Shown: in pieces, positions 60,484 through 63,305 of the stretch | Layout of the letters: each line of letters begins with the position of its first letter | How positions within the stretch are numbered: the stretch's first letter is position 1 | NCBI RefSeq assembly: GCF_904830955.1 | Contig: NZ_LR882970.1 | Origin: Planktothrix tepida | GTDB taxonomy: Bacteria > Cyanobacteriota > Cyanobacteriia > Cyanobacteriales > Microcoleaceae | Direction: 5' to 3' (one strand) | DNA length: 64,000 nucleotides | The notes under the pieces: generated by a model | Database searches by the model: none | Told to the model about the DNA's origin: nothing | Seen by the model: only the letters and a program-made list of their open reading frames with translations | Position numbers and translations under genes: made by a program

Positions 60484-62382
60484 ATGAGTGTAAAAGACAA
60501 ACCTAAATTTCCCCGAAATCTTCCCATCGGAAGTATTTTATTTTGGTTGGGTGTAATCTTCTTAATTGCTAACCTGACATTACCCGGATTATTCGGGCCA
60601 CAAATTCCTCGTGTTCCCTATAGTTTATTTATTGAACAAGTGGAAGATGGGCAAGTTTCCCAAGTTTATCTCAGTCAAGATCAAATTCGCTATTTAGTAA
60701 AAGGAGAACAGGAAAAACCGGGACAAATCCTATCAACAACTCCGATTTTTGATATGGATTTACCCAAACGTTTAGAAGCCAAAGGCGTTGAATTTGCGGC
60801 TGCCCCACCTCCTCAGAATACTTGGTTTTCGAGTTTAATTGGTTGGGTAGTTCCCCCCTTAATTTTTGTGGGAATTTGGGTGGCTGTCGGACAATTCTTA
60901 CAAAGCCGAGGGGGAGGAATTGGAGGGCCACAAGGGGCACTTTCCATTAGTAAGAGTAAAGCCAAAGTTTATGTGGAAAATGATGCCACAAAAGTCACGT
61001 TCAAAGATGTGGCAGGGGTTGAAGAAGCCAAAACCGAATTAGAAGAAGTGGTGGAATTTCTTAAGACTCCCCAACGATTTTTACAAATCGGAGCCAGAAT
61101 TCCTAAAGGCGTATTATTAGTCGGCCCTCCTGGAACCGGAAAAACCTTATTAGCTAAAGCCGTAGCCGGAGAAGCGGGTGTTCCATTCTTTAGCATTTCG
61201 GGTTCAGAATTCGTCGAATTGTTCGTTGGCGCAGGGGCAGCGCGGGTTCGAGATTTATTTGAACAAGCCAAAAAGAAAGCCCCTTGTATTATCTTTATTG
61301 ATGAATTAGATGCCATTGGAAAATCACGGTCGAGTGGCGGAATGTATGGGGGAAATGATGAACGAGAACAAACCCTAAACCAGTTATTAACCGAAATGGA
61401 TGGGTTTGCAGCCGGACAAGCAACGGTAATCGTTTTAGCGGCTACAAACCGCCCGGAAACGTTAGACCCCGCCTTACTGCGTCCCGGTCGATTTGATCGT
61501 CAAGTTTTAGTGGATCGTCCTGATTTATCCGGTCGGTTACTAATTTTAGAAATCTATGCTAAAAAAGTTAAAATTGGGACGGATGTTGACTTAAAAGCGA
61601 TCGCCACTCGTACCCCCGGTTTTGCAGGGGCAGATTTAGCCAATTTAGTTAATGAAGCTGCCTTATTAGCCGCTCGAAATAAACGGGAAACCGTCAGCCA
61701 AGCGGACTTTGCAGAAGCCATTGAACGGGTAGTTGCGGGGTTAGAAAAAAAATCCCGTGTTCTCAATGAAAAAGAGAAGAAAATTGTGGCTTATCATGAA
61801 GTCGGTCACGCGATTGTTGGCGCTGTTGTTTCTGGTCAAAATAAAGTGGCTAAAATCTCCATTGTGCCACGCGGAATGGCTGCATTAGGATATACCTTAC
61901 AACTGCCAACCGAAGACCGTTTCTTACTCAGTGAAGAAGAAATGAAAGCCGAAATTGCCACCTTATTAGGGGGGCGTTCAGCCGAAGAAGTTGTATTTGG
62001 AAGTATTACCACAGGGGCTACCAACGACTTACAACGGGCGACGGATTTAGCTGAACGAATGGTTACCAGTTATGGCATGAGTAAAGTATTAGGGCCGTTG
62101 GCTTATGAAAAGGGTCAACAAAACAATTTCCTCGGCGATAATATGATGATGAATCCTCGCCGTTATGTCAGTGATGAAACGGCAAAAGCCATTGATGATG
62201 AGGTGAAACAACTGGTTGAACAAGCCCATCAAACCGCTTTGGATATCCTGAATCAAAATAAAGATTTAATGGAGCAAATTGCCCAACAAATCTTACAAAC
62301 GGAAGTCATTGAAGGGGAAAATCTGCAACATTTGTTAAATCAAGTTAAGTATGAAGGCAAAATTCCCGCCGCGATCGCATAA
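60484..62382 (+). CDS. ftsH: ATP-dependent zinc metalloprotease FtsH
   Basis: N-terminal TM segment. The AAA Walker A is [23 protein letters not shown]. Walker B is [12 protein letters not shown] is present. The zinc motif is HEVGHAIVG. Confidence 0.9.
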
Positions 62383-63305
62383 TTGATCTATCCCCCCTCG
62401 TTCCCTGGTTCTACCAGGGAATGCCCATCAGAGGCTCTGCCTCTAAATAGATTATCCGATTCAGTAAAGGGTGGCTCTGCCACCCAAAAAGCATTTTTAG
62501 GTAGAACCTAGAAACGAGAGGAAAATTTGTTAAATCAAGTTAAGTATGAAGGCAAAATTCCCGCCGCGATCGCATAATTGATCTATCCCCCCTCGTTCCC
62601 TGGTTCTACCAGGGAATGCCCATCAGAGGCTCTGCCTCTAAATAGATTATCCGATTCAGTGAAGGGTGGCAGAGCCACCCAAAAAGCATTTTTAGGTAGA
62701 ACCTAGAAACGAGAGGAAAATTTGTTAAATCAAGTTAAGTATGAAGGCAAAATTCCCGCCGCGATCGCATAATTGATCTATCCCCCCTCGTTCCCTGGTT
62801 CTACCAGGGAATGCCCATCAGAGGCTCTGCCTCTAAATAGATTATCCGATTCAGTGAAGGGTGGCAGAGCCACCCAAAAAGCATTTTTAGGTAGAACCTA
62901 GAAACGAGAGGAAAATTTGTTAAATCAAGTTAAGTATGAAGGCAAAATTCCCGCCGCGATCGCATAATTGATCTATCCCCCCTCGTTCCCTGGTTCTACC
63001 AGGGAATGCCCATCAGAGGCTCTGCCTCTAAATAGATTATCCGATTTAGTGAAGGGTGGCAGAGCCACCCAAAAAGCATTTCTAGGTAGAACCTAGAAAC
63101 GAGAGGAAAATTTGTTAAATCAAGTTAAGTATGAAGGCAAAATTCCCGCCGCGATCGCATAATTGATCTATCCCCCCTCGTTCCCTGGTTCTACCAGGGA
63201 ATGCCCATCAGAGGCTCTGCCTCTAAATAGATTATCCGATTCAGTGAAGGGTGGCAGAGCCACCCAAAAAGCATTTCTAGGTAGAACCTAGAAACGAGAG
63301 GAACG
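62331..63305. repeat. 5 x 195-bp direct tandem repeats; each unit starts with a copy of the last about 50 nt of ftsH (…[16 protein letters not shown]) followed by about 145 nt containing three hairpins
   Basis: Unit starts (tttgttaaatcaagttaagtatg) fall at 62331, 62526, 62721, 62916 and 63111, an exact 195-nt period. The hairpins are CCCTGG-ttcta-CCAGGG, AGAGGC-tct-GCCTCT and GGGTGGC-(tct|aga)-GCCACCC. Confidence 0.9.

Follow-up and report, generated by a model that had tools for sequence, protein, structure and literature searches.

Intercistronic copies of REP elements stabilise the upstream mRNA, as with the malE-malF REP, and in heterocystous cyanobacteria (Nostocales) the tandem sRNA array NsiR1 has a promoter for each unit and is conserved across species. 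Very small hairpin-forming mobile repeats of Nostoc and Anabaena, the SDR, were reportedly described by Elhai et al. in 2008 and are said to be often nested in larger repeats. In Proteobacteria, REP elements also form REPINs, which are REP doublets that fold into hairpins (PMC3116915, PMC3733652). Cyanobacterial MITEs, including Nezha and MaeMITE, have been reviewed (Delihas 2011, PMC3184786), and Planktothrix genomes hold many IS200/IS605 elements (PMC9366434). In Porphyromonas gingivalis, a minisatellite is reported to lie inside a MITE, which links tandem repeats to a small palindromic element of the non-autonomous kind (PMC4596501).

Here we describe five head-to-tail 195-bp units at positions 62330-63304 of the window (the whole stretch of Planktothrix tepida DNA that was analysed, 64 kb), which lie between tandem ftsH paralogs in one assembly. 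We consider it probable (roughly 0.7) that this array is a recent, strain-specific minisatellite produced by ordinary local genome instability. It does not look like a novel type of system. In P. gingivalis the minisatellite is reported to be internal to the element, whereas here the whole element is repeated together with 53 nt of a host gene. Because the unit consists of both, the amplification would be a duplication of the host locus and not part of the element's design.

Anatomy of the array

Tandem Repeats Finder placed the array at 62330-63303 and gave 5.0 copies at a period of 195, with 99% matches and 0% indels. When aligned, the five copies have a mean column identity of 98%; this and their per-position differences agree with the Tandem Repeats Finder result, bearing out the original prediction of exact-period direct repeats between two ftsH paralogs (Table 1). 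Head-to-tail copies at a constant period are typical of a minisatellite, and copy number also varies among close relatives (five versus one versus a remnant). A CRISPR array would contain unique spacers, but in the alignment it is the whole 195-bp unit that repeats, and unique spacers are absent. Variation among the units is limited to seven positions, with no difference between copies 2 and 3. The repeat is far above chance, since GGCAGAGCC occurs 10 times against 0.22 expected.

The first 53 nt of each unit are the 3' end of ftsH-A, TAA stop included; this is close to the 50 nt or so first noted, and the stretch is 100% identical in all five units. The fragment has a coding role in copy 1 only, where it is the end of ftsH-A itself (62330-62382). 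The period equals 65 codons, each unit has two in-frame stops, and the element region contains trivial ORFs only. A 42-aa ORF with a TTG start, in frame after the ftsH-A stop, and minus-strand ORFs of 27-31 aa were set aside as by-products of the repeat.

Table 1. Features of the ftsH-A/ftsH-B region, in window coordinates. Hairpins are given for element copy 2; those of the other units have the same offsets shifted by multiples of 195.
Feature	Positions	Strand	Basis or remark
ftsH-A, FtsH4-type ATP-dependent zinc metalloprotease, 632 aa	60484-62382	+	ORF; homologs named FtsH4
Tandem array, five 195-bp units	62330-62524, 62525-62719, 62720-62914, 62915-63109, 63110-63304	+	TRF, alignment, per-position differences
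Non-coding ftsH-A 3'-end copies, 53 nt including TAA	62525-62577, 62720-62772, 62915-62967, 63110-63162	+	Exact matches; no start context, in-frame stops
Unit junction GAGAGGAAAATTTGTT	62516-62531; identical at 62711-62726, 62906-62921, 63101-63116	+	Sequence, per-position differences
Element copy 1, 122 nt	62397-62518	.	Flipped hp3 loop TCT at 62476-62478; G-to-A at 62466
Element copy 2	62592-62713	.	hp1 62595-62617, hp2 62625-62639, hp3 62664-62680, hp4 62689-62709
Element copy 3, identical to copy 2	62787-62908	.	Covariance model, per-position differences
Element copy 4	62982-63103	.	Private C-to-T at 63047; ancestral hp4 C at 63082, giving a perfect stem
Element copy 5	63177-63298	.	Ancestral hp3 loop AGA; ancestral hp4 C at 63277
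Reiterated 9-mers AGAAACGAG / AGGAACGAG / AGAAATGAG, right end of array	63290-63328	+	TRF, comparison with relatives
ftsH-B, second FtsH paralog, 5' part, runs off the window	63338-64000	+	Sequence; full-length 617-aa orthologs in L121, L131, L132

All four internal junctions read AAA, whereas the parental flanks (62327-62329 and 63302-63304) both read AAC. At the right end, the window has one more 9-mer, AGGAACGAG, than its relatives. It is within this AGGAACGAG that the unit has its right breakpoint; similar terminal reiterations are found in other members of the element family described below.

It had also been proposed that the array could be a remnant of repeated unequal crossing-over between the paralogs, which do flank it and are similar (70% identity between FtsH-A and a relative's FtsH-B ortholog). 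The repeated gene fragment, however, encodes a tail of 10 protein letters that is specific to FtsH-A and absent from FtsH-B, the 195-bp unit contains no ftsH-B-derived sequence, and a whole gene would be duplicated if the paralogs had crossed over. The element has inverted-repeat ends, but its tandem transposition would not place 53 nt of coding sequence from the host, with one and the same junction, in every unit. We consider both routes extremely improbable.

The differences between copies are nested. With hp1 to hp4 denoting the hairpins of the element, copies 4 and 5 have the hp4 C that the sequences of relatives indicate to be ancestral, copies 1-3 have T, and a loop flip in hp3 is confined to copy 1. 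This pattern bears on whether an assembler inflated a repeat of which the true genome holds one unit, or fewer than five. No related genome compared has more than one unit, and P. tepida PCC 9214, whose FtsH-A is identical to that of the window (cluster P0127), has two public assemblies, one of which was built in 2017 from 250-nt Illumina reads with Velvet and GapCloser (PMC5259702). Assemblers do not, however, invent nested substitutions and a three-base loop inversion, and short-read assemblers collapse such repeats instead of expanding them. The other public assembly, GCA_904830955 with LR882970-72, used PacBio with 10-kb libraries, which would span the 975-bp array (PMC9366434), and the window is free of N. 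An assembly duplication is thus improbable because the copies carry nested sequence differences.

A four-hairpin element and its dispersed family

The core of the unit is a 122-nt quasi-palindrome with four hairpins. Three had been named at the outset, CCCTGG-ttcta-CCAGGG, AGAGGC-tct-GCCTCT and GGGTGGC-n3-GCCACCC, and these are present in every unit, but the count was one short: the fourth is TTT(T/C)TAGG-tagaa-CCTAGAAA, and its 5' arm is the AAAAAGCATTTTTAGG noted at the outset. All four are triloop hairpins of the form GGY-TCT-RCC or GGY-AGA-RCC; the elementary GGY-TCT-RCC hairpin could, we presume, be SDR-like. The termini are CTCGTT...AACGAG inverted repeats, the ends CTCGTTCCCTGGTTCTACC and GGTAGAACCTAGAAACGAG giving this non-coding 122-nt element the terminal inverted repeats of a MITE. 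Its left and right halves are inverted copies, so that it forms a head-to-head pair of half modules.

A stable structure is predicted for the element (-50 kcal/mol, z = -6.2), as the hairpin interpretation had anticipated. The minimum free energy fold of the window's element copy is a long-range pairing of the two arms, which we rejected as the conserved structure: it has zero covariation support in the family, and we therefore take the four local hairpins to be conserved. For these, 93% of cells were paired and 16 of 32 pairs had changed on both sides, a level of covariation reached by none of 500 shuffles, while slid controls gave 35-49%. Pairs in the local hairpins are thus kept through compensatory changes, in a test that responds alike to selection on RNA, selection on DNA and hairpin-templated correction.

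The search for further copies of the core found none outside the array within the 64-kb window but at least 120 matching stretches in public genomes, almost all cyanobacterial and with a modular architecture in common. A covariance-model search gave 199 matches in 100 loci. Such numbers of dispersed copies are characteristic of MITEs, and sequence comparison places the core in a dispersed, REP/MITE-like family of four-hairpin elements in cyanobacteria. Among the family elements, 19 lie between convergent genes and 3 between divergent genes, and many start 9-50 nt past a stop codon. Most Tandem Repeats Finder detections over 120 family loci were unrelated 123-126-bp WD40-type coding repeats and were discarded; local tandem duplication involving the element itself does recur (L004, L067, L018, L036, L061 and L084).

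Like REP and REPIN sequences, the element is a short, many-copy extragenic palindrome, is found either singly, as a half module of two hairpins, or as an inverted doublet, sits just 3' of genes and rarely between divergent genes, and marks an insertion hot spot, as in the spacer of strain No713 described below. Unlike them, it has no unpaired 5' GTAG or CGTC tag, GTAG being restricted to the paired top of hp4 (the GGTAGAACC hairpin) and the conserved unpaired flank being CTCGTT / AACGAG, and its unit is built from four hairpins with TCT/AGA triloops. Compared by description, it resembles Nezha and MaeMITE in being non-coding, within 100-170 bp, bounded by terminal inverted repeats, very stable in predicted structure and intergenic in filamentous cyanobacteria. 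It differs from them in that covariation backs four local hairpins, not end-to-end pairing. In 44 full-length copies the flanks show no consistent direct repeat that would make a target-site duplication evident, and the ends carry short CTCGTT/AACGAG reiterations instead. A full-text literature search with the element's sequence motifs returned no relevant paper, and neither a paper on GTAG/CGTC REPs nor one on the Planktothrix REP-like 'RR' contained in its text a sequence that matches the element.

As the original prediction allowed, the array could alternatively be one of small RNAs; each unit would then be a gene transcribed on its own, in the manner of NsiR1. Tandem sRNA arrays are known in cyanobacteria, each unit has a stable predicted fold, and, as with NsiR1, structured units stand in tandem beside a gene. 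But whereas NsiR1 has a promoter per unit and conservation across species, no promoter-like site was found inside any unit here, the count over the region was not above that in shuffled sequences, and only one strain has the array, relatives carrying a single copy. An Rfam scan of 60000-64000 with E up to 10 gave only chance matches to eukaryotic miRNA models, the best of which scored 22 bits where the gathering score is 97. The units also include a fragment of a coding gene, and covariance model R1 scores both strands of copy 1 nearly equally (91.6 bits on +, 86.9 bits on -), as it would for a DNA palindrome. We therefore regard a small-RNA array as very improbable.

An amplified terminator, also suggested originally, finds no support in the promoter and terminator scan. 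A Rho-independent terminator would have a GC-rich stem-loop followed by a U-run; no stem followed by a T-run occurs on the + strand of the array, and terminator-like matches are restricted to the - strand, at hp4 of copies 4 and 5.

The family itself is a more useful by-product of this work than the array: it occurs widely among filamentous cyanobacteria, its covariation is strong and Rfam has no entry for it. Screens for terminators, small RNAs and RNA motifs can be misled by such elements.

The spacer in related genomes

Exactly one copy of the element is present at the same site in relatives (L121, L122, L129, L130 and L132-L135), and the single-copy ftsH-A/ftsH-B spacer measures 172-230 bp across the other Planktothrix lineages compared. 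For the P0122 lineage, which comprises at least 21 contigs, five places were listed and the four with DNA show a 172-bp spacer. In relatives, the element lies ~14-22 nt past the ftsH-A stop and ~30 nt before the ftsH-B start. The Capilliphycus ftsH spacer has no element. The Planktothrix comparisons indicate that the element has long occupied this spacer as a single copy across the genus. The copy-number comparison first proposed gave single copies, in genomes of other species or lineages and not in other assemblies of the same strain.

In P. pseudagardhii No713, the genome closest to the window, upstream identity is 99.7-100%, and from 61926 onward the divergence is ~9%. In place of the array it has a remnant of hp1 and a 1.4-kb insertion, and it keeps both ftsH genes despite the destroyed element. 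Judged from these alignments, the ftsH-A/ftsH-B spacer is a structural hot spot in Planktothrix: close relatives show three structural alleles, and ftsH-A contains a recombination breakpoint. For that reason the spacer could be of use as a strain marker.

As noted from the start, copy 1 has TCT in the hp3 loop where copies 2-5 have AGA, and all relatives have AGA; the copy 1 loop is by this comparison a derived inversion. Since TCT/AGA flips also recur across the element family, the template switching envisaged in the original prediction is a plausible source for this inversion. Conversion from another family member is a possible alternative.

Origin and possible effects of the amplification

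The other Planktothrix lineages compared hold one element copy at this site, or in No713 a remnant, and it is on this ground that we read the array as a recent, strain-specific minisatellite. The ancestral spacer would have been ~175-230 bp long with one 122-nt four-hairpin element. In a reconstruction that uses the junctions only, one illegitimate duplication would have fused the element's reiterated AACGAG end to ftsH-A at a point 53 nt ahead of its stop codon, through the 3-nt microhomology AAC. The product would have been a direct repeat of 195 bp whose only junction gained a C-to-A change. The same base change in all four internal junctions points to one founding duplication. Growth to five units would have followed by unequal homologous recombination or replication slippage, with the same junction recopied, and later point changes and one hairpin-loop inversion would mark individual copies. 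A 204-bp unit formed through GGAA microhomology and then shortened by a 9-bp deletion was less parsimonious than AAC microhomology with one substitution.

Because every unit carries the same ftsH-A tail, expansion or contraction would always regenerate an intact ftsH-A and leave ftsH-B untouched, and the array is for this reason probably close to neutral. A minisatellite may be tolerated here between two essential-type genes since each unit regenerates the gene end, and the locus would represent a clean natural case of a hairpin-rich repeat element that seeds duplication at a microhomology, with a minisatellite as the outcome.

The array would stretch the intercistronic RNA from ~175 to 955 nt and raise the number of hairpins from 4 to 20. 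If it acts as REP elements between cistrons do, it would be expected to protect the ftsH-A message from 3' decay and to lower read-through into ftsH-B. In relatives, the spacer has no room for a separate ftsH-B promoter, so ftsH-B transcription probably relies on read-through. The element could be an intercistronic RNA stabiliser or attenuator, with five copies selected to shift the ratio of ftsH-A to ftsH-B expression. Consistent with this are the predicted stability of the hairpins, the preference of the family for gene 3' ends, and element stems that are conserved or compensated across Planktothrix. Relative to L121, moreover, the element is 89% conserved and ftsH-A third codon positions 73%, which suggests that the element itself may be functional and makes a selected effect of its amplification conceivable. 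Against it, the array is found in one strain only and every other lineage compared has one copy, the closest genome lost the element to an insertion and kept both genes, and a canonical + strand terminator is absent. We think that an adaptive amplification is unlikely. A broader proposal starts from the absence of the element from Rfam and the compensatory changes in its stems: the element would be a functional RNA module, so far undescribed, of 3'-UTRs or intercistronic regions throughout the phylum, and its amplification an adaptive, copy-number-tunable attenuator. This is distinctly unlikely; if true, the attenuator would set the ratio of two FtsH4-type paralogs that may form one protease complex.

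The array between the two ftsH genes

Tandem Repeats Finder reported a single array (period 195, 5.0 copies, 99% matches, 0 indels) between the tandem genes ftsH-A (upstream) and ftsH-B (downstream), paralogs of ~70% identity. The five copies were aligned together with the flanking sequence; borders were sharp and mean column identity was 98%. This alignment and direct reading of the sequence confirm the five exact-period repeats of the original prediction. Every unit starts with the last 53 nt of ftsH-A including the stop codon, identical in 5/5 units. Only the first of these fragments is coding; the other four are enclosed by stops and lack a start context. 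Short ORFs within the units arise as a by-product of the period, which is divisible by three.

Folding of a unit gave a stable structure on either strand (z = -4.6 and -6.6), as had been anticipated, in which the region 3' of the stop codon pairs with the unit end. The fold revealed the outer inverted repeats CTCGTT...AACGAG and a hairpin, TTT(T/C)TAGG-tagaa-CCTAGAAA, that had been overlooked; the three hairpins named originally are present in every unit. In all four (hp1-hp4) the stem is closed by GGY-TCT-RCC or its complement GGY-AGA-RCC. The loops run TCT, TCT, AGA, AGA along the element, so that its 122-nt core is a quasi-palindrome of two inverted two-hairpin halves (predicted fold -50 kcal/mol, z = -6.2). 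Copy 1 has TCT as its hp3 loop whereas copies 2-5 have AGA, exactly as first described.

A scan of the array units found no + strand terminator or promoter-like sites, and the suggested amplified terminator and small-RNA array are thus unsupported, as is crossing-over between the ftsH paralogs. Only copies 4 and 5 show an intrinsic-terminator pattern on the minus strand, a perfect hp4 followed by CTTTTTGG, which would act on transcription antisense to ftsH-B; a C-to-T change removes the match in copies 1-3.

Coordinates of features in the window and, where an L-number is given, in fetched loci of other genomes or contigs
Feature	Position	Strand	Details
24-bp repeat	2380-3106		x 30 (also read as 96 bp x 7); codes an octapeptide repeat
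ORF, 656 aa	1769-3739	-	host of the 24-bp repeat
Tandem heptamers	19987-20042, 25983-26026, 35685-35717, 37942-37969, 42206-42243		units TCAGTTG, CAGTTAT, TCAGTTA, TTATCAG, ACTAATT
ORF, 2250 aa	42251-49003	+	host of the 285-bp repeat
Pro/Thr-type short repeats	42635-42774, 43904-44130		in the 2250-aa ORF
285-bp repeat	45257-46409		four copies, 98% identity, 95 aa per unit
ORF, 614 aa	53864-55708		contains or adjoins the alignment gap
Alignment gap against No713	54208-54609		~400 bp; indel or replaced segment
Large serine recombinase gene	56742-58037	-	431 aa; ~2.4 kb upstream of ftsH-A
ftsH-A	60484-62382		632 aa; FtsH4-type protease
Array of 195-bp units	62330-63303
hp3 loop, copy 1	62476-62478
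Terminator pattern, copies 4 and 5	63077-63101, 63272-63296	-
CTCGTT/AACGAG-type reiteration	63290-63328
ftsH-B	from 63338		second ftsH gene; runs past window end
No713 ftsH spacer with an insertion	L131 6066-7624		insertion of 1.4 kb
ORF in that insertion, 355 aa	L131 6470-7537	opposite
Capilliphycus salinus ftsH-A/ftsH-B spacer	L128 6909-7254
Whole-element tandem arrays	L004 4362-4734; L067 6954-7217		two to three copies
Module duplications	L018 6467-6603; L036 1313-1465; L061 7172-7598; L084 415-549		100% identical

A dispersed family of four-hairpin elements

We scanned one genome per prokaryotic species with a 19-nt arm motif, CTCGTTYCYWGGTTCTACC. At least 120 stretches matched, and nearly all matches listed were held by cyanobacteria (Planktothrix, Hormoscilla, Scytonema, Nostoc, Microcoleus, Stigonema and others). 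Their neighbourhoods share a modular plan, CTCGTTCCCAGG-ttcta-CCTGGGAATGC ... GAGGC-tct-GCCTC ... GAGGC-aga-GCCTC ... GCATTCCCAGG-cagag-CCTGGGAACGAG; solitary half elements also occur among the matches listed, and short CTCGTT/AACGAG reiterations often follow the element ends, as in the window.

In an alignment of 36 members, 93% of cells in the four local hairpins were paired, compared with 35-49% for slid controls. Both-sided changes were seen in 16 of the 32 pairs, a level reached by 0/500 shuffles, whereas the outer-arm pairing had zero covariation in the family alignment. Since the hairpins covary and the outer arms do not, the conserved structure is the four local hairpins. A covariance model was derived from the 36-member alignment and gave 199 matches in 100 of the listed family loci, scoring near-equally on both strands, as expected of a palindrome; the five array copies were its only matches in the 64-kb window. 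Rfam held nothing comparable to the element, and a literature text search for its sequence motifs found no paper. The most likely prior description is reportedly that of small dispersed repeats by Elhai et al. in 2008, and the family may already have a description under another name.

Genomic positions were surveyed with crude ORF calls around 137 motif matches, 15 of which fell inside long ORFs. Where intergenic matches had ORFs on both sides, the flanking genes were convergent in 19 cases and divergent in only 3; many matches began 9-50 nt past a stop codon, and orientation relative to co-directional genes was without clear bias (18 vs 28). The preference for 3' ends and the scarcity between divergent genes both match REP-type elements. 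The family follows the REP-type pattern, in which elements are tolerated or beneficial at 3' ends while promoter regions are kept free of them, and is a more interesting object than the array.

Relatives, proposed origin and possible effect of the array

The FtsH-A protein of Planktothrix tepida PCC 9214 is identical to that encoded in the window, and two neighbouring proteins also match this strain. P. pseudagardhii No713 apart, every other Planktothrix lineage fetched has the tandem ftsH pair with a 172-230 bp spacer and exactly one element: one contig each from ENA and JGI, both of agardhii/rubescens type (L121, L129), the MAG L122, labelled Planktothrix sp., another contig from a metagenome (L130), and L132-L135, four contigs from a lineage that has been widely sampled and whose FtsH-A is found on at least 21 contigs. 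These one-copy relatives carry AGA in the hp3 loop and, in hp4, the C that gives a perfect stem, so the TCT loop of copy 1 and the T of copies 1-3 are derived. Between the window and L121 the element is 89% identical, vs 73% for ftsH-A third codon positions. In L122, hp1 is altered on both sides (CCCTGG/CCAGGG to CCCAGG/CCTGGG), which hints at constraint on the hairpins, but exchange with other family members could also yield this change. The more distant Capilliphycus has the tandem pair with an unrelated spacer, and other more distant relatives lack the second ftsH gene. The Capilliphycus salinus spacer holds a different repeat type, with GGGGGA / TCCCCC-rich palindromes such as CCCCCTTCAAAAGGGGG; similar units stand in tandem in another locus (L064).

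The closest genome is No713 (L131; LR882967.1; identified via PMC9366434). It matches the window at 100% over 50217-54208, with 13 differing positions over 54609-59848 and 0 over 59848-61926; 41 differences then fall within the final 470 bp that align (61926-62395), covering the ftsH-A end and the first spacer bases, and identity in ftsH-B is 95.5%. The abrupt change indicates a recombination breakpoint within ftsH-A, with a mosaic 3' end, spacer and ftsH-B. In the No713 spacer, hp1 is all that remains of the element, and directly after it comes an insertion, whose ORF has no Pfam hit on record. Array, single element and insertion make at least three structural states of the spacer among close relatives, marking it as a hot spot. 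An earlier Planktothrix study likewise linked insertions to REP-like palindromes (PMC4766695), although the 10-bp direct repeats given in its text for those regions are not derived from the element of the window.

The left unit border lies inside ftsH-A (…GCAAC|ATTTG…) and the right one falls within the reiterations at the element terminus (…GAGGAAC|GAGAG…). The border triplet is AAC in both parental flanks and AAA in 4/4 internal junctions. In the simplest history suggested by these junctions, one duplication at the AAC microhomology would have founded the array, a C-to-A change would have arisen at the single new junction, and the array would then have grown by unequal recombination or by slippage between 195-bp units, copying that junction at each step. 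hp4 is ancestral in copies 4-5, with the T shared by copies 1-3; copy 4 has one private change, and copy 1 has one plus its loop flip. Such nested variants would fit stepwise growth with the private changes arising later. The original remark on loop inversion was sound: a three-base flip in a perfect stem is the expected product of an intrastrand template switch, although conversion from another copy may also account for it. Flips of this kind affect a few percent of the hairpins aligned across the family.

The captured 53 nt of host gene rule out that the units were copied by transposition. Local tandem duplication is a recurrent habit of the family, seen both as whole-element arrays and as module duplications, and the window stands out by how many copies it has and by the captured host-gene sequence. 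It is improbable that the five units are an assembly artefact: the copies differ internally in a phylogenetically sensible way, which argues against assembler duplication, the window is free of N, and a PacBio assembly of PCC 9214 exists. Read from the window sequence, the array is real but ordinary, a recent, strain-specific minisatellite with an apparent copy number of five, whose unit is the ftsH-A tail plus a resident REP/MITE-like four-hairpin element.

In the relatives, the ftsH-B start codon is only ~30 nt past the element, so that transcription of ftsH-B probably starts at the ftsH-A promoter and passes through the element. Intercistronic REP hairpins guard the upstream message and lower downstream expression. 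By analogy, the hairpins here would act in the same two ways, and five copies would strengthen both effects. Selection of the five-copy array for this reason seems unlikely: a single strain has the array, and the sister genome has lost the element.

Other repeats and neighbouring genes

Orthologs of the serine recombinase have Resolvase, Recombinase and Zn-ribbon domains, and the position of the gene is conserved in Planktothrix loci L131-L135. The 2250-aa ORF, with its 285-bp and short repeats, probably encodes a large repetitive surface protein. The tandem heptamers are similar to STRR repeats, which are typical of filamentous cyanobacteria.
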